From Opitutales bacterium (GTDB taxonomy: Bacteria > Verrucomicrobiota > Verrucomicrobiia > Opitutales > CAXXNP01): DNA of 64,000 bases. The notes beneath the pieces were generated by a model that searched no databases, was not told where the DNA came from, and saw only the letters and a list, made by a program, of their open reading frames with translations. Numbering within the stretch: position 1 is the stretch's first letter; each line of letters starts with the position of its first letter. A program made the position numbers and the translations under genes. Positions 6,409-21,802 of this stretch are shown piece after piece. The stretch covers positions 1,382,563 to 1,446,562 of the forward strand of contig OY762281.2 in NCBI GenBank assembly GCA_963665345.2. Reading direction: 5' to 3'.

Positions 6409-6891
6409 CTAAAATGTGGGTTGCATCACTGATTTTTGCCCATGGCGAATGGCGATATTTTCGCCTGCCGACCAGGTAAAGTCGTTGATCAGAAACTTGC
6501 AGATCAGGTCTTCTTCGAGGCGCTCACTGCACCACTGCCATATGTCGGCTTCGATATTTTCCATGGCAATCCCGCGATGCCATCTGAGATTGGCGCCCTC
6601 GCCCCGGATAAAGAGCTCGTTGCCCCAGCCCACATCGACCTGGGCCATGATTATCGTTGGGTATACGGATTTAGGGCGCTTCCGAGTGGACGCTTTCTTG
6701 CCCGTTGCAGGCGTAGCGAGCGTCTTGTTGGCGGGCGCTTTTTTCGCACTGCGCGAACTTGCCGCGGAAGCACGGGCTTTGCTGCCAGCCTCAACCGCGC
6801 TGCTCTTCCTTGTTGTCGCCTTCCTCGTCATGGAAGCCGATGTTTTCGGGGATTTTGTTGATTTCTTTTCCCGTTTGGATCTCTCGCTCAT
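6409..6891 (-). CDS. hypothetical protein: Lys/Ser/Thr/Ala-rich basic N-terminus plus a possible CBM20-like beta-sandwich C-terminus
   Basis: Start placed at MSERSKREKKSTKSPK (ATG at 6891). The C-terminal GNELFIRGEGANLRW...IWQW...KFLINDFTWSAGEN resembles starch-binding (CBM20-type) signatures. That assignment is tentative. Confidence 0.55.
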   Translation of the reverse strand: MSERSKREKKSTKSPKTSASMTRKATTRKSSAVEAGSKARASAASSRSAKKAPANKTLATPATGKKASTRKRPKSVYPTIIMAQVDVGWGNELFIRGEGANLRWHRGIAMENIEADIWQWCSERLEEDLICKFLINDFTWSAGENIAIRHGQKSVMQPTF

Positions 6892-7114
6892 GATAATTAT
6901 ATGCTTTGAAAAACCCGAATTAAGAGATGCTTGATCAATATACGTCCCAGATTGCCAAGCAATTGGCAGACCAATTTTCACGTTTGAGCATAGATTGCTC
7001 ATCCGTGCTGCCAATGCCTGGTTATGGACATTAGGAGGTTCCGCATCGAGGCCCGCGCCCGTCAACTATGGTCGGATCATGAACCCTGGATTCTTGGAAA
7101 TCCCGCGAGGCGAT

Positions 7115-7484: not shown

Positions 7485-7560
7485 GGGGCCGTAGCTCAGA
7501 TGGAAGAGCGCTTGAATCGCACTCAAGAGGTCGGCGGTTCGATCCCGCTCGGCTCCACCA
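7485..7560 (+). tRNA. tRNA-Ala: tRNA-Ala (anticodon CGC)
   Basis: GGGGCCGTAGCTCAGATGGAAGAGCGCTTGAATCGCACTCAAGAGGTCGGCGGTTCGATCCCGCTCGGCTCCACCA folds as a cloverleaf. The anticodon loop is ATCGCAC, giving CGC. The G3:U70 Ala identity pair, the GTTCGATCC T-loop and an encoded CCA are all present. Confidence 0.95.
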
Positions 7561-7852: not shown

Positions 7853-8656
7853 TCAATTTTCCCGGTTTCCAGATATCTTTTCCCAGCCCAGGCGGCACGA
7901 TCGCCCAGACCTGATGGCGGCCTGTATCACGCCCTCTTCCCAGAACGTCTTCAGCGAGTCCGGCATCTGAGAATCGGCATAGTGCCGGCTGGTTGTGTTG
8001 GCATCGAAATGCCCGCCCTGCTGTTGTGCAGCCAGCAGACCGTCAATCTTGACCTTACTGGAGAACCAGAACGTGCGTAACCCATGTGCGGGGTGGGTGA
8101 CATTTAACCCTTTCACCCGCAACCACTGGCTCAACCTCTGAAACGCCATCCCTGCCTTGTGGTAGTGGTCGAGTCGCTCCTCCGCATCTCCATCGAGAAC
8201 AAAGTCCGACCCTGATCGTTGTTTCCAGAGCTCACGATAGGCAAACTCGCTCACCACCACCTCCCTCTCGTGCTCGGCCTTCGGCATGAAGCGCCCGTCG
8301 GCATGAACCCGAAGCTCAACCACATCGCCGATGTTCCACTATTGCCAGCGGCAAAACCCCGCCTCTCTGCGCCGGCGCCGCTGGAGCATCTCGAGGTCGT
8401 CTTCATTAACCTCACTCAGAATGGCGTCCTGGAAGTCGTGGAGTAGTCGAGCCGTCAACTCATTAACCCGCATCGCTTCATACGGCGAATAGTCGATCTT
8501 GGGCGACCCCGACCGGCTCACGAATTCCTCGCCCCGACGGTAAGCGTCCACCCGCCGCCGCAGCAACATCAGCGACGACCAGTTCGTTTTAACGGTCCCA
8601 GGCGACAACCCGAACCGCTTCGCCGTGCTTAGATATTCGTCAATTATCTCTCCCAA
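7853..8656 (-). pseudogene. tyrosine recombinase/integrase interrupted by one in-frame TAG
   Basis: ORFs 8339..8656 (SAM-like N-domain, GEIIDEYLSTAKRFGLSPGTVKTNW) and 7853..8323 (catalytic part with HGLRTFW and GGHFDANTTSRHY) are in the same frame. They are separated only by a TAG at 8341-8339 (..CRWQ*WNIGDVVEL..). The gene lies 3' of the tRNA and points towards it. Confidence 0.75.
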
Positions 8657-8756: not shown

Positions 8757-9098
8757 TCACAGTTCTAACCTGGAGGTCGAAGAGCCACGGCAAGGTCCGG
8801 CTTTCCTTTTGTTTAGGCAGGACCGCCTCCCAACCGGTCCATTTTTACGGTGCCTACGCGTGTTCCAAACGCCGACTTCTAAGCACTCTTCGAGGTACTC
8901 CCTCGCACATCTCTCGACTATGTTCCGGGCTGCTTTACACGGCCAGACGTCGTTTTCATCAGCCGGTGCTTTTGCCAGAAGCACGCCAATGGCTGGGTCA
9001 GCTTCCCTGAGATTTTCCTGTTCGCCGCATATCGTTCGCACTTCACTCACCCATTGAATCAGGCGCTCGGCCTCCGCTGGATCATCGATCGCCTCCAT
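8757..9098 (-). CDS. hypothetical protein (4th gene of the islet operon)
   Basis: 113-aa ORF starting 8 nt after the stop of the upstream gene. The N-terminal half is acidic. The C-terminal tail is basic and low-complexity (RRHRKNGPVGRRSCLNKRKAG), so the 3' end may be decayed. No family recognised. Confidence 0.45.
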   Translation of the reverse strand: MEAIDDPAEAERLIQWVSEVRTICGEQENLREADPAIGVLLAKAPADENDVWPCKAARNIVERCAREYLEECLEVGVWNTRRHRKNGPVGRRSCLNKRKAGPCRGSSTSRLEL

Positions 9099-9106
9099 GC
9101 GCTGCT

Positions 9107-9700
9107 TCAGATGCGCTGGACTTCCTCGGTCTCTGGGCGCGCGAAATACTTTGTAAGCCTTATCAGGAAGTAGTAGAACCCATTCTGTGAGAACGACGCA
9201 ACGCGCCTTCCCGCAGAAAGCGCAGTACTGTATAGGTTGCTGCTCACTGCTGACATGCGCTCCAGCAGGATTACGGCGCCCTCGCGAAATCCGGGACAGT
9301 CCGCCAGATATAGAATCTCGTACACCTTGTTCTGCTTCACGCTATGCAAAAAGTCCGCTGCCGCAGCGCGATTCCGTCGGCCCCTTCGAATGCCTCCCTC
9401 AAATGCTGAGAATTCGAACACGGGCACAACGGTAATGAACTCCGATCTACCGGGCTGCAAGTCACAGGTGTTGTTGACCACGGCAACCGTGAATACAGCC
9501 CTCCTCGCCGCACCGCCGGCGTCGATGATGGCGAAAGGCATCCCATCCACCAAATCCCCCTGTAGCCTCTCTTCATCAGGATGCGGGTCGACAAGAAGCG
9601 GTGGCGTTTCCGGCTCCTGGTGGAGCCAATCCAGGAAGGCCTGGAGGCTACTCCCCTGAAACAAGCCGCTATGCCTCGCAGCCTCGTCGAGATACATCAT
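9107..9700 (-). CDS. hypothetical protein (3rd gene of the islet operon)
   Basis: 197-aa ORF whose ATG overlaps the upstream stop (ATGA at 9700-9697). Motifs seen: VVNNTCDLQPGR..FITVVPVFEF and a C-terminal ..SQNGFYYFLIRLTKYFARPE. No family confidently recognised. Confidence 0.6.
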   Translation of the reverse strand: MMYLDEAARHSGLFQGSSLQAFLDWLHQEPETPPLLVDPHPDEERLQGDLVDGMPFAIIDAGGAARRAVFTVAVVNNTCDLQPGRSEFITVVPVFEFSAFEGGIRRGRRNRAAAADFLHSVKQNKVYEILYLADCPGFREGAVILLERMSAVSSNLYSTALSAGRRVASFSQNGFYYFLIRLTKYFARPETEEVQRI

Positions 9701-9984
9701 TCGAACTGAGCGAGGAAGAAGTCGTCCACGGCACTTCTCTCCCAGTCCACCATCGGGCGCATGCTGCGCAGGGCCGCGTTGGCTGCAGCAAGGAGACTCA
9801 CCGGCCTGGAAATCTCATCGCCCGCGCCTGACGTCGAGTCACTCCAGTTCCAAACCGTCACCTCTGTCGGTTGAACCTGGTCGAACTCGTATTCCAGCGT
9901 AGAGGCAGTGTTGGACGGTGCGCCATGTAAGCCAGCCAGTACACCGAGCGCCAACAGTGGAGAATCAATTCTTACAGATGCCAT
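9697..9984 (-). CDS. small acidic hypothetical protein (2nd gene of the islet operon)
   Basis: 95-aa ORF overlapping the end of the TIGR04255-like gene by 20 nt and the next gene by 4 nt. No family recognised. Confidence 0.5.
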   Translation of the reverse strand: MASVRIDSPLLALGVLAGLHGAPSNTASTLEYEFDQVQPTEVTVWNWSDSTSGAGDEISRPVSLLAAANAALRSMRPMVDWERSAVDDFFLAQFE

Positions 9985-10738
9985 TTTCCCTGATCGGATC
10001 GAATAACTCTCTCGTATTATCCTTTAGAAATGCTTCGAACGCAAGCGCTTGTGGTTCATGCACCAACTCCAGACGATCAGGGAGCTCGTCGCCACGCGCA
10101 TTTCCGGCGAGGATCACATCGAAATCGAACATCACGGTGCTGGAACCCGCTTCCTCTGACCGAATGGTGCCGATATTGCAGACGGCCCGAAGTCCCTCCT
10201 CAAGCTCATTATCGTAGTGAATTTGCACTTTACCACCGGGACGTCTGAATCGATCCGGTATAGGAATCCGAAATTCGAACCAGTCTTCCCAATTGAGCGG
10301 AGTTTCCGGAATCTCAATTCTGTCGATATATCGTAACCCTAGCCGAGAAAGGCCCTCAATGCCCAAAACAGAATGCGCCTCGGAGAATCGACTCAGAATC
10401 ATCGGTTTAAATCCTTCGCGCCATCCCGGATAGACGGCGAGGTGATTGACTGCCATCAGAGTCGGCGCTAACTGAACCAGTTTCTTTCCATCCGACGAGC
10501 GGCATATCAGCTTGCTGCCAAGGTGCTCTTCCCTGGCTTGAATCCCGTCGATGCTGATCTTGAATCCAAGCTTTTTCTCCTCAGCGAGATTTTGAACGGG
10601 ATACAGCTCCTTCCACACGGGTCGAAGCTGCTCAATTTCATCTTCCTTCAGAGGTTGCGAACGGTCGAAATGAATCTCACAAATCACCTCTTGGAGCGGC
10701 GGCTTCCCGTATTTCGTCTCCTGGCGCGGCATCAACAA
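9965..10738 (-). CDS. TIGR04255-like uncharacterised protein (1st gene of the islet operon)
   Basis: The N-terminal KYGKPPLQEVICEIHFD matches the Y-x-x-P-P-[LI]-x-E-[VA]-x-x-E-[IF]-x-F start I associate with TIGR04255. The length (257 aa) fits. Needs HMM confirmation. Confidence 0.7.
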   Translation of the reverse strand: MLMPRQETKYGKPPLQEVICEIHFDRSQPLKEDEIEQLRPVWKELYPVQNLAEEKKLGFKISIDGIQAREEHLGSKLICRSSDGKKLVQLAPTLMAVNHLAVYPGWREGFKPMILSRFSEAHSVLGIEGLSRLGLRYIDRIEIPETPLNWEDWFEFRIPIPDRFRRPGGKVQIHYDNELEEGLRAVCNIGTIRSEEAGSSTVMFDFDVILAGNARGDELPDRLELVHEPQALAFEAFLKDNTRELFDPIRENGICKN

Positions 10739-10832: not shown

Positions 10833-11147
10833 TTGGGCAGCTTCGGAACGCTCTCCTGTTATCGCTGCGGTGGCGAGCTTCAGCTTTCCTGGGATGATGG
10901 CCCGGATTACAGTTGGTCTTGCCTGGAGGGCTGCGGACCACGCATCCGAACAGGAGCGCTGATTACTGAAACGGATTCCCAGTTTCTCGCGAGTGGCGGA
11001 AGGGGTTACCGTAGGCGCCTTCGTGCCACCGATACTTCGCTTTATGTTCGGCCGGAGCGAACCACCTCAGAGGTTCTACTGAGTGCCAGGGTGTGCATGC
11101 CCTATCCATTGCAGCACTTCATCGAATGCACGATGATGGTCTGCTAA
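10833..11147 (+). CDS. possible small Cys-rich (zinc-ribbon-like) protein, divergent from the operon
   Basis: ORF with a TTG start containing CYRCGG...SCLEGCG. No other support, so it could be non-coding. Confidence 0.25.
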   Translation: MGSFGTLSCYRCGGELQLSWDDGPDYSWSCLEGCGPRIRTGALITETDSQFLASGGRGYRRRLRATDTSLYVRPERTTSEVLLSARVCMPYPLQHFIECTMMVC

Positions 11148-11304
11148 ATGGGCATCTACAGGAATTTATTGGTTCCTCATCTCGATAATGTCGATGTCCT
11201 GGACCATGTGCTCCACGCAAGTGTCATTAGCCCTTGGGTTAACACCATTGAGGGAAAGCGGTTAACACCATCGAGATCATCGATATCTCCGAGCATCAGC
11301 CCGC

Positions 11305-11593
11305 CGCATCCCGTCCGCGAAATGGCGCGAACTGATCAAGAAGGTCTGGGAAGCCGACCCGCTGCTCTGCCCCACATGCTCACGGGAAATGCGGATCGTC
11401 GTGCTTATCGACGACCGGACCGTGATCGAGCGCATCTTGCGGCATCTGGGCCTGTGGGAACAGTTCGCGCGGGTGTTTCTCTCCAAGGGCACCTCCGGAA
11501 CCGGCCGAATGGGTCATTGGACCCTCCCTGGATGACCCATTTCCCGACTACGACACCGAACCCATCTACTTGTCTTCCGAAGCTTCGGCGTAG
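11305..11593 (+). pseudogene. IS91-family (Y2/rolling-circle) transposase C-terminal remnant
   Basis: One frame reads RIPSAKWRELIKKVWEADPLLCPTCSREMRIVVLIDDRTVIERILRHLGLWEQ. After a frameshift it continues PSLDDPFPDYDTEPIYLSSEASA*. This is the typical zinc-finger tail of IS91-type transposases; the N-terminal roughly 300 aa are missing. Confidence 0.7.
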
Positions 11594-12158: not shown

Positions 12159-13214
12159 ATGCCCAAAACCTATACAGCCGCAGTCGTCGGTGCAGGCGGA
12201 GGCGGAAAAGCCAGCCTCAAAGGTCTCTCCGATTCAGATCGTTATGATCTACGCGCAGTCACGGATCTCAACCCCGAAGTTCAAGAAGAAATCAAAGGCC
12301 TTTACCCAGGCATCCAAACCTTTTCCAACCACCGCAACATGTTTGCCCAATGCCCCACCGACATTGTCTGCGTCTCAACCTGGCCACCGTCACATCTCGA
12401 AATCACACGCGAGGCCCTCAATTTACCCCTCACTGGCATTGTCGTTGAAAAACCTCTGGCTGACAACGCCGCCGCCGGTCGCACCATTTGCAACCTCATT
12501 CACGAAAAAAACCTGCCCGTTGCAGTCCCTCACGGCCTTCTTGTATCCGAACACATCGACCGCATTATGGCCCATGCACACAATGGCGATCTGGGTGACA
12601 TCAAGCTGATCGAAATCCAATGTACCAATTGGGACATTATCAACGCAGGCATTCACTGGCTCAACTTTGTTGTAAACCTCGTTAATGAACCCTTCGACCA
12701 CGTCCTCGCCGCCTGTGACAAAACCACGCGCACATATAGAGATGGCATGCAAGTCGAAACCCTTTCCGTCACAACAGCCCAAACCAAAAGCGGCATTCGC
12801 ATCGTCATGCACATAGGCGATCATGTCACTGTCAATGGCGATGGTGGTGTCGTCTTTCGCATTCTCGGCACAGACGGCGACATCGAATTCTACGGCTGGA
12901 AGTCGGCTTATCGCATTCGCAACGCCGATCACCCCAGCGCTGAACTCATCGATGTACCCGCACGCCCCGGCACCCGGCATCAGCTTCACCTTGAAAACCT
13001 CGCCAATCAAATGGATCGCAACGAACTGGACTATCGCCTCATTGAAAGCTCATGGGCAGCCCTTGAACTATGCGAAGCAGCTTACGTTTCTGCCCGTCAT
13101 GGCTGCGCCATCTCGTTCCCCCTCGCCGACTTTCCCATTCCCGACAAAAACGATTGGGACCCCGGCATTCCCTACAGCGGTTCGGGCGGTGGGAGGAACG
13201 GGCGGACACTTTAG
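12159..13214 (+). CDS. Gfo/Idh/MocA family oxidoreductase
   Basis: N-terminal Rossmann motif AAVVGAGGGGKASL, followed by VVEKPLA. Confidence 0.88.
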   Translation: MPKTYTAAVVGAGGGGKASLKGLSDSDRYDLRAVTDLNPEVQEEIKGLYPGIQTFSNHRNMFAQCPTDIVCVSTWPPSHLEITREALNLPLTGIVVEKPLADNAAAGRTICNLIHEKNLPVAVPHGLLVSEHIDRIMAHAHNGDLGDIKLIEIQCTNWDIINAGIHWLNFVVNLVNEPFDHVLAACDKTTRTYRDGMQVETLSVTTAQTKSGIRIVMHIGDHVTVNGDGGVVFRILGTDGDIEFYGWKSAYRIRNADHPSAELIDVPARPGTRHQLHLENLANQMDRNELDYRLIESSWAALELCEAAYVSARHGCAISFPLADFPIPDKNDWDPGIPYSGSGGGRNGRTL

Positions 13215-13290: not shown

Positions 13291-14355
13291 ATGATCAAAT
13301 TTGGAATCGTTGGCACAGGATGGCGGTCACACTTTTTTCATCGAGCAGCGCATGCCTGTCCTGATCTTTTTACATGCGTTGGTGTTGTCACTCGCGACCC
13401 AGAACGCGCAGCGCCATTGGGTGAGCAATACGGCGTAAATCTTTATCCTGCACTCGATGACTTGCTTGCGCAAAAACCCGACTACGTCGTCACCAGTGTG
13501 CCCTGGCCCGTCAATCCGGGTCTCTTGCACCAACTCGCCGATGCCAATATGCCTGCCTTAGCCGAAACGCCGCCTGGCCCAACGACAGAAGAAATGGCTG
13601 GCCTTTGCAAACGAACGCAAGACGGTGCCATCATCCAGGTGGCCGAACAATATTTCCTACAGCCGCATCATGCAGCCAAACTCGCCTTTATCGAAACCGG
13701 CAGACTCGGCACCATCTCTCAAGCCCAAGTATCCGCCGCGCACGGTTATCACGGCATCAGCCTCATTCGCAAATTTCTTGGCATCGGCTTTGAATGCCCC
13801 ACCATTACAGCTCACGAATTTACCTCGCCACTTACAAAAGGTCCCAATCGCGACGGTCCACCTGAAGAAGAAAGCACCGGCAACAGCAAACAAACCATCG
13901 CTTATCTCAACTTTGGCGACCGCTTAGGTGTATTTGACTTTGCCGGAGATCAATACTTCTCTCACATCCGCAACCAGCGTGTGCTCATTCGCGGTGACCG
14001 CGGCGAAATCATCAACGATACAGCCACCTATTTAAAAGATTACCTCACACCCGTTACCGTACACTTCACCCGACAGTGCGCTGGCCCCGAAGGCAACCTC
14101 GAAGGCAACCACCTCAAAGGGTATCAAGCCGGTGAATCCTGGATCTACCAAAACCCCCTTGCTCCCGGCGAACTCTCCGACGACGAAATAGCCGTAGGCC
14201 ATTGCATGCGCCTTATGGGCGAACACGTCAACGGCGGTGATCCCGTTTACCCTTTAGAAGAAGCCTGCCAAGATCACTACCTCAACCTGTGCATTCAACA
14301 AGCACAACAGGAGAATAAATCAGTCACAGTTGAACCTCAATCTTGGGCATTATAG
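13291..14355 (+). CDS. Gfo/Idh/MocA family oxidoreductase
   Basis: MIKFGIVGTGWRSHFF start at ATG 13291. The ORF-track start at 12823 is an out-of-frame overlap with the preceding gene. Confidence 0.85.
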   Translation: MIKFGIVGTGWRSHFFHRAAHACPDLFTCVGVVTRDPERAAPLGEQYGVNLYPALDDLLAQKPDYVVTSVPWPVNPGLLHQLADANMPALAETPPGPTTEEMAGLCKRTQDGAIIQVAEQYFLQPHHAAKLAFIETGRLGTISQAQVSAAHGYHGISLIRKFLGIGFECPTITAHEFTSPLTKGPNRDGPPEEESTGNSKQTIAYLNFGDRLGVFDFAGDQYFSHIRNQRVLIRGDRGEIINDTATYLKDYLTPVTVHFTRQCAGPEGNLEGNHLKGYQAGESWIYQNPLAPGELSDDEIAVGHCMRLMGEHVNGGDPVYPLEEACQDHYLNLCIQQAQQENKSVTVEPQSWAL

Positions 14356-16468: not shown

Positions 16469-16639
16469 TGACCCCTTGTACGACTACGACGCCGAAACGG
16501 CCGCGATGCGGGCGAACGCGTGAGCCACGGCAACGGTCTACTGTCAAACGGCGCTTTTACTCGCATCCAGCCGGATTTTTTGACAACCCTCTGCCCGAAA
16601 AGCAATTTCTTTTCAATTTGCTTCCTATCGGTCTAACCC

Positions 16640-18656
16640 CTCTTTCTCAACTGGGCGTCATTTTTGACCTAAGTCGTTGATAAACGACCAAAGGTCTCCA
16701 CTACATCTCGCTAGTTTTCGATTCGATTTTTGGTGGCGGTTGTGCAGGAAGTTCAAGCTTTAGCTGGTTGAGCAATAGCTTTTGATCCTTACTGGGCTCG
16801 GTGTAACGGGTGAGCACCACGGTGCGCCCGTCGGTGGTGGGTAGCTTTACATCGAGCATTTGCATCGCCGCCATTTTCGAAAGCACCTCGGCGGCAGTAA
16901 GACCAGGGGCCAGATCGCGCAAGCGACGCTTCAGAGTGACCCATAGGCAGTAAGCCAGGAAGCTGATAAAAATATGGGCCTCGATGCGATCGTCCCTTTG
17001 GTGATGGATGGGCCGGATGGAGAGGTCATTTTTCATTTCCTTGAAAACTTGCTCGATCTCAGTGAGTTGGATGTAGAGGTGCCAGAGGCGGTGCGGATTG
17101 TCGGCACTGAGGGTGCTGCGCAACAGGTAGCGGCCTTCCCGGCGATAGGCCTGACGGTAGTTCTTCCAGTTCAACCGGAAGCTCACCGGCGAGCCATTGG
17201 CGGGGCCATCCTCGGGGGCTACGGCAATGTCGAGTAAACGCCAGATCCGCGGGCCGGCTTCCTTCTTGGCTTCGCCCAGTTTAATGAGGATGGTATCGCG
17301 CTGGTAACGCCGCTTGCTATCGCGGAGCTTCTTGAGCCTCTCAAGCAATCGGCGCAAACCGCGCAGACGCATACCCTTTTCTTTGTGCAGACGCTCCTTG
17401 CTACGGGCCAAAACATAAGTTTCACCCCCCTCCCTGATGAGTTTTACGTCGATACCTGCACGCAGATTCTGCCACTGCTTTTGCAGCAACGATTGCTCGA
17501 ACTTGTCCAGCCACGAGCGCGGCGTACCCACCAGATAGTCGATCGGCGGGTCGCTTGCACGCATCTGGGCCAAAACCTCCTCGGTAGGTATTCCCCGATC
17601 CATGACCCAGATGCGCCGGGCCTTGCCGTAGGCCTTTTCGATGCGAGCAAGAAAATCGCCCAAGGTGGTTTGATCCAGGGTGTTACCGGGAAGCACTTCA
17701 TAGGCAATCGGAAAGCCCTCCGGGGTGACTACCAGGGCGATCACCACCTGCAGACAATCCCAACGTTTGTCTCGGCTGTAGCCGAACTTGCGGATTCGGC
17801 TCGAAGCCGCTGGTTCCTGGTTCGGATCACACTCGAAATAGGTGCTCGTCAGATCGTATAGCAGTACCTCGTAACGGGTGTTGAACAGATCGCTCCAGCG
17901 GTTGGTCAGGTGGCTGAACAGGGCCTTTTTGTGCTCCAGCAATCGATCGTGGCAGCGATACAGGGTGTTCTTCTCGGCCAAGGCGAAGTCTTCGCCCAGA
18001 AGATCGGCCATGGCTGATTGCTCATACCATTGGCGGTGCAGCCGCCACTCGCTTCCTGGATCGATCAGTCGATAGGCCACCAGGGTTTGCAACACATGGG
18101 CCCACCGCCTGCCTTGCCGGGAAGGCCTCACTCGCTCGCGCCAGAACTCACCCAACCCCAATTGTTCATAAAGCACGCAGGACAACCAGCACGCTCCCCA
18201 TTGCCGGGGCCGCTCTATCCTCAAATCTTTGAGCCGAATCCGTACGATGCTTTCCTCCTCGAGCGGCGGCGCCCGATCTTCGGGAAACAGCGCCACCTGC
18301 TCCGGCCGGGCACTACCCTCGGCAAAGATCTCGATACTCTTGCGCCAAGCGCTGCGCTGGCTGTCGTTGATCTCTCCAAGGTAGAGAACCTGCCTCTGCA
18401 CCACCCGACCGCCACCCACACGCTTATTCTCCACGATGTTCCAATAGCAATGCTCTTTGCCATCTTTGCGCCGACGATTGCACCTCAGAAACATGATGGC
18501 CCCCAATTATACAAACATATCGAGGCCTGGGAAGAGGGTAGGTCTACACTACAGGCTGTTCTGCCAACCTTCCCCCACTGTTTATGCGACTCGACAGCCC
18601 ATTTACCCCCGAAAAAAACTTTTTTAGAGGTTGAGTTGGTCAAGTCGGGCTAAGAT
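16640..18656 (-). mobile_element. IS1634-family insertion sequence (boundaries approximate)
   Basis: A single large transposase gene with about 60-150 bp flanks sits between two unrelated genes. I could not define terminal inverted repeats convincingly by eye. Confidence 0.55.
16701..18494 (-). CDS. IS1634-family DDE transposase
   Basis: MFLRCNRRRKDGKEHCYWNIVENKRV..RVVQRQVLYLGEIN is the characteristic IS1634 N-terminus, and the length is about 600 aa. I prefer the ATG at 18494 over the TTG at 18506. Confidence 0.88.
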   Translation of the reverse strand: MFLRCNRRRKDGKEHCYWNIVENKRVGGGRVVQRQVLYLGEINDSQRSAWRKSIEIFAEGSARPEQVALFPEDRAPPLEEESIVRIRLKDLRIERPRQWGACWLSCVLYEQLGLGEFWRERVRPSRQGRRWAHVLQTLVAYRLIDPGSEWRLHRQWYEQSAMADLLGEDFALAEKNTLYRCHDRLLEHKKALFSHLTNRWSDLFNTRYEVLLYDLTSTYFECDPNQEPAASSRIRKFGYSRDKRWDCLQVVIALVVTPEGFPIAYEVLPGNTLDQTTLGDFLARIEKAYGKARRIWVMDRGIPTEEVLAQMRASDPPIDYLVGTPRSWLDKFEQSLLQKQWQNLRAGIDVKLIREGGETYVLARSKERLHKEKGMRLRGLRRLLERLKKLRDSKRRYQRDTILIKLGEAKKEAGPRIWRLLDIAVAPEDGPANGSPVSFRLNWKNYRQAYRREGRYLLRSTLSADNPHRLWHLYIQLTEIEQVFKEMKNDLSIRPIHHQRDDRIEAHIFISFLAYCLWVTLKRRLRDLAPGLTAAEVLSKMAAMQMLDVKLPTTDGRTVVLTRYTEPSKDQKLLLNQLKLELPAQPPPKIESKTSEM

Positions 18657-21037: not shown

Positions 21038-21802
21038 ATGAACATGTACGAGGCAAGGCAGTATATCGAACTCTTCAACCTGCTGTTCCTGGACTTCCTC
21101 GGACGTAAGTTGGACAAGAGGCGCTATGTCCTTAAGGGCGGCTGTAATCTGCGATTCTTCATGAAGAGTTTCCGGTATTCGGAAGACATGGACATCGATG
21201 TCCAGGACATTCCGAAGCAGAAGCTGTCCGATACCGTTGACTTGATCTTGAATTCCAGATCCTTCGCCCAGGTCCTGCAAATCAATGAAATGGGCCTGGA
21301 GAGATATTCGGCGCCGAAGCAAACGGAGACGACCCAACGATGGAAAATGCTGCTCAAGGTAAGGGGCGTCGATGTCCTCTTGAATACAAAGACCGAGTTC
21401 TCGCGCCGGGGAGTGAGTCAGGAGCACGTCTTTGAGGCCATTGATCCTCTCCTGGTGGGCGCATATTCGCTAGCTCCGATTCTAACGAACCACTACACGC
21501 CTCACGCCGCATACAAGCAGAAGGTGGAAGCCCTGATCACAAGATCTGCGACGCAGGCACGGGACGTCTTTGATCTCTACCTTCTACTGTCTACCGGCGT
21601 CGATTCGCAACTCGATGACTTCAAGCTGAACGACTGTCTTGGCGAGGCGGCATCGAACGCCATGTCCGTCACATTCGATATTTTCAAAGCGCAAGTTTTC
21701 TCCTACCTGCATCCCGATTACCAGTCAAACTATGACTCACAAGATCTGTGGGACGACATGGTTCTTAAAGTGGCTGAGGCTATTGAGGAAGCGGCGCAAT
21801 GA
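21038..21802 (+). CDS. abiEii: nucleotidyltransferase AbiEii/AbiGii-family toxin (DUF1814)
   Basis: YVLKGGCNLRFFMKSFRYSEDMDIDV matches the KGGTAL...R.S.D.D nucleotidyltransferase signature of the family. Length is about 250 aa. Confidence 0.85.
   Translation: MNMYEARQYIELFNLLFLDFLGRKLDKRRYVLKGGCNLRFFMKSFRYSEDMDIDVQDIPKQKLSDTVDLILNSRSFAQVLQINEMGLERYSAPKQTETTQRWKMLLKVRGVDVLLNTKTEFSRRGVSQEHVFEAIDPLLVGAYSLAPILTNHYTPHAAYKQKVEALITRSATQARDVFDLYLLLSTGVDSQLDDFKLNDCLGEAASNAMSVTFDIFKAQVFSYLHPDYQSNYDSQDLWDDMVLKVAEAIEEAAQ

Follow-up and report, generated by a model that had tools for sequence, protein, structure and literature searches.

A 64,000-nucleotide (nt) stretch of the genome of an Opitutales bacterium (GenBank assembly GCA_963665345.2, contig OY762281.2, positions 1,382,563 to 1,446,562; the whole stretch is referred to here as the window) carries on its minus strand three small coupled genes, named A, B and C below, which make up a cassette that is conserved, mobile and hitherto undescribed, and are a credible new immunity module of the toxin–antitoxin (TA) type. 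The reading that we favour, with a confidence somewhat better than even, is that A-B-C is a mobile three-component TA-type module, which most likely serves in abortive infection or in defence against phages. A preliminary description of this DNA had proposed a translationally coupled operon of four genes of unknown function, as a candidate for a novel defence or addiction system. The four open reading frames (ORFs) are present on the minus strand as claimed, and the junctions, re-read in the DNA, are a 20-nt overlap, an ATGA overlap and an 8-nt gap:

9965–10738, minus strand: gene A, 257 amino acids (aa) from the TTG at 10738, or 255 aa from the ATG at 10732
9697–9984, minus strand: gene B, 95 aa, overlapping A by 20 nt and C by ATGA
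9107–9700, minus strand: gene C, 197 aa
8757–9098, minus strand: ORF D, 113 aa, 8 nt downstream of C

The 255-aa form of A, starting at ATG 10732, is the version found in public collections.

The conserved unit consists of A, B and C. A homology search with C returned 58 clusters of about 195–213 aa, and in all 15 distinct loci reached through C the order was A (about 250 aa, TIGR04255-like), B (about 90–113 aa) and C. These 15 loci correspond to 3 context look-ups and 12 genome loci, the latter mostly from Verrucomicrobiota, but also from metagenome-assembled genomes of Binatia, Syntrophobacteraceae and Pyrinomonadaceae, and one labelled Saccharimonadales. A metagenome scan with the A profile yielded 80 further loci, and when the downstream ORFs were chained, 37–39 loci showed the A-B-C arrangement; in 37 of the loci retrieved, A and C have B between them. 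The non-redundant A-B-C set comprises 29 loci, in addition to a Bacteroidota (Phocaeicola) plasmid and two Pseudomonas temperate phages. Across loci the junctions are mostly overlaps (−1 to −22 nt) or gaps shorter than 15 nt. By pairwise Nei–Gojobori estimates, restricted to pairs at unsaturated dS, dN/dS was 0.04–0.18 for A, 0.04–0.22 for B and 0.05–0.18 for C, and all three genes are under strong purifying selection. The coupled operon of the preliminary description was thus upheld for A, B and C, whose homologues are strictly syntenic in all related loci and which carry a clear coding signal, but not for D.

ORF D is a lineage-specific orphan and not a component of the system. Searches of about 100 related loci and of the rest of the window by tblastn or phmmer gave no homologue of it, clustering of 15 billion proteins leaves it a singleton, of two near-identical assemblies L103 has a gene call for it and L102 has none, and the genes downstream of C vary from locus to locus; for these reasons we place it outside the cassette. 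Searches against phages (tblastn) and the PDB gave no match to D. That D is a lineage-specific fourth component, with all four ORFs functional here, we consider very improbable: its position on the same strand only 8 nt after C, its gene call in L103 and the match of its residues 4–81 to positions 1115–1193 of the 1258-position phage family phrog_18693 (E 3e-9) speak for it, whereas the missing homologues beside other trios, the singleton cluster, the absent call in L102, the Arg/Lys-rich, low-complexity last 30 residues and the different genes found 3′ of C everywhere else speak against it. D is possibly the remnant or stump of a larger gene. A fragment of the giant STAND protein located behind C in locus L001 was also considered for D, and was ruled out by BLASTP.

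One functional indication comes from the predicted structure of C. The AF2 model, built from a 46-sequence alignment (pLDDT 86), has the SH3-like beta-barrel with a C-terminal helix expected of the MazF/PemK class, and the top 34 Foldseek matches in the PDB were all MazF/MoxT/PemK-type toxins (best E 5.7e-5, probability 1.0, target-normalised TM 0.56–0.76), with the ToxN-like CptN lower in the list; PemK-like matches were also obtained in the viral structure library BFVD. The predicted MazF core is accompanied by two N-terminal helices and a two-helix insertion, and C is about 80 residues longer than MazF or PemK. The model thus gives C a MazF/PemK-like toxin fold, so that the earlier statement that no function could be assigned to any of the four proteins now looks overly pessimistic for C; none of A, B and C matches a housekeeping fold. 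The strings VVNNTCDLQPGR, RRGRRNR and LIRLTKYFARPE noted in the preliminary description are all present in C, although the RRGRRNR patch is not conserved among relatives.

Conservation in C follows a pattern of its own. The close family keeps RLQGD, NNTCDL, R85, R166-A168-S169, R188, E190 and R196, and over 93 distant members Q47, D49, C79 and R188 never vary, with G48, N77 and D80 almost as constant. An exhaustive search with a hidden Markov model (E<=1e-3) placed 821 clusters at 50% identity in this superfamily, nearly all of 190–215 aa, with no PADLOC match among the 93 members; in PHROGs, C matches phrog_4575, of unknown function (E 4e-21). In one clade of loci (L031, L032, L034, L038 and L039), A and B are 90–97% identical (dS 0.2–0.7), while C of L038 and L039 is only about 80–86% identical to the rest (dS 1.5–2.0), which suggests that the C gene can be exchanged by recombination independently of A and B.

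A second line of evidence is that A also leads other cassettes in which the remaining genes are replaced. Homologues of A at 26–32% identity (A′) head a second cassette at about 35–44 loci (among L054–L101; e.g. L054, 128–1700, and L080, 5001–6700), where A′ is followed by a protein of 145–194 aa with a conserved C-terminal domain and by a HEPN protein (PF05168) of 117–133 aa, and often then by a ResIII-like helicase of about 848 aa. In the HEPN protein, R-N-x-x-D-Y stands in place of the usual Rx4-6H motif, without a His, and against PADLOC this third gene gave generic weak HEPN matches only. Single loci combine A′ with a 119-aa protein and a VapC-like PIN protein, with a 125-aa protein and a Fic protein, and with a 119-aa protein and a C-like protein bearing an SQSCDL motif. 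Beyond the HEPN type, TIGR04255-led cassettes (L083, 3951–5500; L021, 5001–6728; L110, 4983–6813; L109, 4992–6294) have a VapC-like PIN or a Fic protein as third gene or, on Crinalium and Thermus plasmids, unrelated hypothetical partners; the Thermus copy adjoins VapBC, a DNA methylase and cas6. The middle gene switches family along with the third gene while A stays, which is the pattern expected of a toxin, its specific antitoxin and a toxin-independent accessory. A hydrophobic chaperone-addiction segment common to all middle proteins was also considered and was rejected, as the B of MazF-type cassettes has it and the middle proteins of HEPN-type cassettes do not.

These sister cassettes also bear on the possibility, which we regard as improbable, that C is not a toxin, its MazF-like model being a coincidence of fold, and that the trio does another job, for example with A as an enzyme or nucleotide-binding protein served by two accessory subunits, or with the whole trio as a phage-carried anti-defence or regulatory module. 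The lack of MazF sequence similarity in C, its own invariant Cys/Asp/Gln/Arg set, which suggests a different chemistry, the conserved acidic and basic residues of A, which could be catalytic, a weak Foldseek match of A to a triphosphate-tunnel enzyme, and phage-borne copies, which could equally serve counter-defence, would all fit such a job. Against this, the slot of C is occupied in sister cassettes by three classical toxin domains (HEPN, PIN and Fic), all top structural matches of C are toxins at probability 1.0, and chromosomal copies lie inside bacterial defence operons.

Gene B has the properties expected of an antitoxin: it is small and, as the preliminary description had noted, acidic, with a pI of 4.27, it lies directly upstream of C with an ATGA overlap, and it changes faster than A and C outside a conserved C-terminal motif, P(M/L)T..ER...(D/N)EFF(W/L)..F, its middle part being poorly conserved. 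No match to B was found in Pfam, NCBIfam, PADLOC or PHROGs; over all ORFs these collections gave only TIGR04255 for A, phrog_4575 for C and the partial phrog_18693 match for D. Among type 1 B proteins, 84% have a hydrophobic N-terminal segment of 12–18 residues, compared with 17% for control ORFs (the N-terminus of B is encoded at 9915–9984 of the window); the segment could be a membrane anchor or a strand buried in a complex.

Gene A matches the NCBIfam family TIGR04255 over its full length (90.4 bits for a cut-off of 30, E 1.6e-25, model positions 2–251 of 252), in agreement with the label it had been given at first, and the A genes of the sister cassettes, of the two phages and of the plasmid also pass this cut-off. 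RefSeq names such cassettes only as a TIGR04255 family protein followed by hypothetical proteins, and in the paper library that was searched there was no mention of TIGR04255, CHP04255 or IPR026349; newer catalogues may list the system under another name. The AF2 model of A (pLDDT 91, pTM 0.85) shows two beta-alpha-beta4-alpha repeats, that is, an internal duplication. Over 78 TIGR04255 sequences at 26–100% identity, the residues Y10, E17, E21, D83, Q89, N98, Y103, W106, R136, Y137, D205, H227, E235 and R243 are kept, and of these E17, E21, D83, Q89, N98, Y103, R136, Y137, D205 and H227 form a conserved polar group. This conservation suggests a site that binds a ligand or substrate, or one for catalysis. 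With a pI of 5.3, A is acidic, and it has no helix-turn-helix (HTH) or ribbon-helix-helix (RHH) domain by Pfam and NCBIfam, and with its conserved polar residues it fits ligand or protein binding better than DNA binding or the role of a simple repressor. Sequence and profile searches of the PDB gave no match to A.

The cassette is found at genomic addresses typical of defence cargo. Among 114 ORFs that surround the trio in the 29 non-redundant loci, the commonest families were type I restriction–modification (R-M) methyltransferase and specificity subunits, PglX, type IIG enzymes and BrxL. By BLAST, R-M or BREX genes lie within 6 kb in 8 loci, and in 3 of these 8 the trio stands between pglX and brxL; BREX is claimed here from pglX (PADLOC) and brxL (Pfam) only, and an attempt to identify the gene of about 800 aa that follows the trio in these loci as PglZ did not confirm it. 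Other neighbours were HsdM fragments, a type III Mod gene, HigBA with an NB-ARC protein, and a giant AAA_16/NPHP3_N STAND protein with an integrase. The phage and plasmid copies were found by tblastn only with P0145, a distant member of the C superfamily; C and D of the window against phages, and C against plasmids, gave no tblastn match, and no relatives were found in a scan of IMG/VR with the C profile. In the Pseudomonas phage Dobby (Peduoviridae, MK034952.1) the trio lies at 1090–2786, at the genome end and directly beside the portal gene, a site that we take to be the moron locus where phiCTX-like phages carry cargo. Its DNA, when re-read, gives an A of 254 aa from a GTG at 1090, a B of 109 aa from 1847 and a C of 199 aa, the deposited annotation having shortened the TIGR04255 gene to 123 aa (1483–1854). 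In phage VW-6S the trio lies between the CI repressor and the integrase, and the Phocaeicola plasmid carries it as well. Small, adjacent, co-directional and coupled genes, distributed patchily on plasmids, phages and islets, show the layout of type II TA systems. No PADLOC model fits any component: A, B, C and D gave no match in PADLOC-DB v2.0.0, and neither did the A proteins of the sister cassettes. Taken with the synteny, the selection and the fold of C, the R-M, BREX and STAND neighbours sustain the idea of a novel defence or addiction system for A, B and C, and not for D.

The same distribution would suit a plain addiction module that stabilises mobile elements, takes no part in phage defence and uses A only as regulator of the operon, an explanation that we hold to be unlikely, if somewhat less so than the non-toxin one. 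Copies on plasmids, prophages and integrase-bearing islets and a toxin-like fold with a small upstream partner fit it, and three-gene TA systems led by a separate regulator exist (omega-epsilon-zeta and paaR-paaA-parE); such a regulator would make sense here, as B has no DNA-binding domain. On the other hand, A is large, acidic and endowed with a conserved, pocket-like polar set, unlike small basic repressors, and places inside BREX operons, beside chromosomal R-M genes and in phage moron hot spots are typical of defence cargo. As many TA modules do both jobs, this explanation overlaps with the one we favour.

Under the three-component reading, C would be the effector, according to its model a highly divergent representative of the MazF/PemK/CcdB fold class, and by analogy would most probably block translation by cutting RNA; RNA or translation as the target is suggested by the likeness of fold and by HEPN, PIN and Fic in the same slot. 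It would use its own conserved site (Q47-G-D49, N77-T-C79-D80 and R188) instead of the MazF Arg/Thr pair. B would be its cognate, labile acidic antitoxin, probably neutralising C through a conserved C-terminal helix and the ER...EFFW..F motif. A would be the shared third component, not tied to one toxin (MazF-like, HEPN, PIN or Fic), and would probably couple the B-C pair to a trigger. In one version, A may sense a phage product or ligand and control B or C; in another, drawn by analogy with the TBP-like domains of RnlA, it may bind the RNA substrate as a specificity subunit. In either version C would be freed or directed only on infection.

Several observations weigh against this interpretation. 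Neither C nor the 93 superfamily members had a Pfam match (PemK_toxin and CcdB included), no MazF was found with C in the PDB by sequence or profile searches, and alignment of the C family with four MazF/Kid sequences by hhalign gave a probability of 0.4%, the sole paired segment (GAVILLERMSAVS with DSVILLEQIRTID) being a topologically equivalent strand. The canonical MazF Arg of the beta1-beta2 loop and the Thr (Thr/Ser) at the end of beta3 are not evidently conserved in C, whose beta1-beta2 loop is short; a basic residue ahead of beta2 is kept in the close family and not across the superfamily. C is also acidic (pI 5.6), and the CcdB branch of the MazF-type fold is not a nuclease. Given the Arg/Thr pair, the short loop and the acidity, an RNase activity of C is proposed by analogy. 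For A, Foldseek gave TBP matches at probability 0.93–1.0 but with TM of 0.26–0.43 and a root-mean-square deviation of about 11 Å, so that the TBP-like label is tentative, and its profile aligned with E. coli RnlA at a probability of 0.9% (hhalign). B has no recognisable DNA-binding domain (AbrB, RHH or other), unlike autoregulating type II antitoxins, and its hydrophobic N-terminal segment has no positively charged n-region and is not a canonical signal peptide. No fusions of A, B or C occur among the top 150 relatives of C. In locus L004 the trio lies amid ordinary metabolic genes, and the cassette of the window, on a decayed islet, could be a relic.

Among known systems, MazEF/PemIK (Kis-Kid) comes nearest in fold and in gene pair; it shares the fold of C and the coupled small acidic protein directly upstream; as in MazE, the conserved C-terminal region of B could fill the toxin groove. 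By sequence, however, C does not belong to this family: neither sequence nor profile comparison gives a significant similarity, C is longer and has different invariant residues, B lacks an AbrB, RHH or other DNA-binding domain, and an obligatory third gene, A, stands ahead. By architecture, the closest are RnlAB/LsoAB (TBP-TBP-HEPN) or tripartite TA systems, whose defining components are absent here. Among the latter, the SecB-like chaperone of toxin–antitoxin–chaperone (TAC) systems serves HigBA, MqsRA and HicAB pairs, and omega-epsilon-zeta and paaR-paaA-parE are three-gene systems with a separate regulator first. As in TAC and omega-epsilon-zeta systems, three genes are co-transcribed and one component is common to different TA pairs; the order accessory–antitoxin–toxin is that of omega-epsilon-zeta, and the acidic A could be a protein-binding partner. 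A is not SecB-like, however, and the TAC chaperone is usually the last gene, whereas, compared with omega-epsilon-zeta and paaR-paaA-parE, A lacks an HTH or RHH domain. RnlA, from an anti-phage TA system, consists of two TBP-like domains and a HEPN RNase, TBP1 being needed for substrate or RNA binding and for activity (PMC8266594). The resemblance lies in a tandem TBP-like module, tentative in A, combined with an RNase-type toxin, and the sister cassettes carry a HEPN third gene; in RnlA, however, the TBP-like domains are fused to the toxin while A is a separate protein, the toxin of the window is MazF-like and not HEPN, and RnlA is not among the top 50 Foldseek matches of A. GajC of type II Gabija has a split MazF-like domain with a helical insertion and is the abortive-infection effector of a validated system (PMC13069673). 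C, by comparison of descriptions, likewise has a MazF-like fold interrupted by helices, but GajC works with the UvrD-type helicase GajB and there is no helicase beside A-B-C. In Panacea, one conserved component (PanA) is combined with many unrelated toxin domains (PMC10440598), much as A is reused with unrelated toxins; those are two-gene systems, in which PanA is or accompanies the neutralising domain, whereas in the present cassettes a distinct middle protein changes together with the toxin, and A is an additional protein from a different family.

A wider reading, that TIGR04255 marks a widespread, undescribed class of immune modules in which a TBP-like sensor or adaptor governs swappable TA pairs, that the trio of the window is one of these modules, that C is a new toxin family with a Cys/Asp/Gln/Arg site, and that BREX and R-M islands house such modules, as do moron hot spots of P2-like and lambdoid Pseudomonas phages, is possible but less likely than not. 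Should the TA-type reading hold, a function would be obtained for TIGR04255, at present only a RefSeq family name with hypothetical neighbours, and for an unannotated superfamily of 821 clusters without a Pfam or PADLOC model, together with a new defence or TA architecture in which a third component, independent of the effector, serves at least four toxin chemistries. The interest lies mainly in this reusable component and in the large unannotated toxin family; such modules would help to show how infection signals are connected to TA pairs, the Dobby and VW-6S copies offer culturable Pseudomonas systems, and the unit of study is corrected from four genes to three.

The cassette lies on a small islet next to a tRNA gene, as had been described, with the following neighbours:

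7485–7560, plus strand: tRNA-Ala(CGC), by ARAGORN
7853–8656, minus strand: tyrosine-integrase remnant, in two ORFs (8339–8656 and 7853–8323) split by a stop
11266–11532, plus strand: C-terminal remnant of an IS91-family transposase, by tblastn, on the far side of the cassette

The decayed element probably integrated at the tRNA-Ala; a search for a direct repeat of its end that would delimit the islet found none. The integrase claimed earlier is recognisable by its C-terminal catalytic part, but the gene is in two fragments and scores below the Pfam cut-off (Phage_integrase, E 0.016). It keeps only the C-terminal HxxR...Y region and not the full R..HxxR..Y catalytic domain, and aligns with the intact 370-aa integrase of locus L001 at 40% identity over 63 aa (E 4e-8). 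Of the transposase remnants that had been proposed in the plural, one was confirmed: 11266–11532, without a Pfam match, found 102 plasmid records by tblastn (best E 1e-11) labelled "IS91 family transposase". The small Cys-rich ORF at 10833–11147 exists as described, but it has no Pfam, NCBIfam, PADLOC or PHROGs match, and the public collection has no gene call for it. Ordinary chromosomal genes resume with two adjoining oxidoreductase genes of the Gfo/Idh/MocA type (12159–13214 and 13300–14355, plus strand; Pfam annotation from a near-identical assembly), so that the islet extends over at most about 4.5 kb (7.6–12.1 kb).

Other features of the window were observed in passing. Adjoining the tRNA, there is a 218-aa ORF (6409–7065, minus strand) whose N-terminal half is of low complexity and rich in Lys, Ser, Ala and Thr, whereas the C-terminal half looks ordered; its family matches are at chance level only. 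A 254-aa ORF (21038–21802, plus strand) corresponds to a gene with Pfam AbiEii (PF08843) in L102, an assembly 99.94–99.97% identical to the window; it is a second gene of abortive-infection or TA type, about 10 kb from the cassette. A 2.0-kb insertion (16637–18644), with a 601-aa transposase ORF (16701–18506, minus strand), is missing from L102, and the flanking alignments overlap by 9 bp, which suggests a target-site duplication and hence a recent insertion-sequence polymorphism. A small indel difference of about 100 nt was also observed between 1473–1491 of the window and 18215–18320 of L102.

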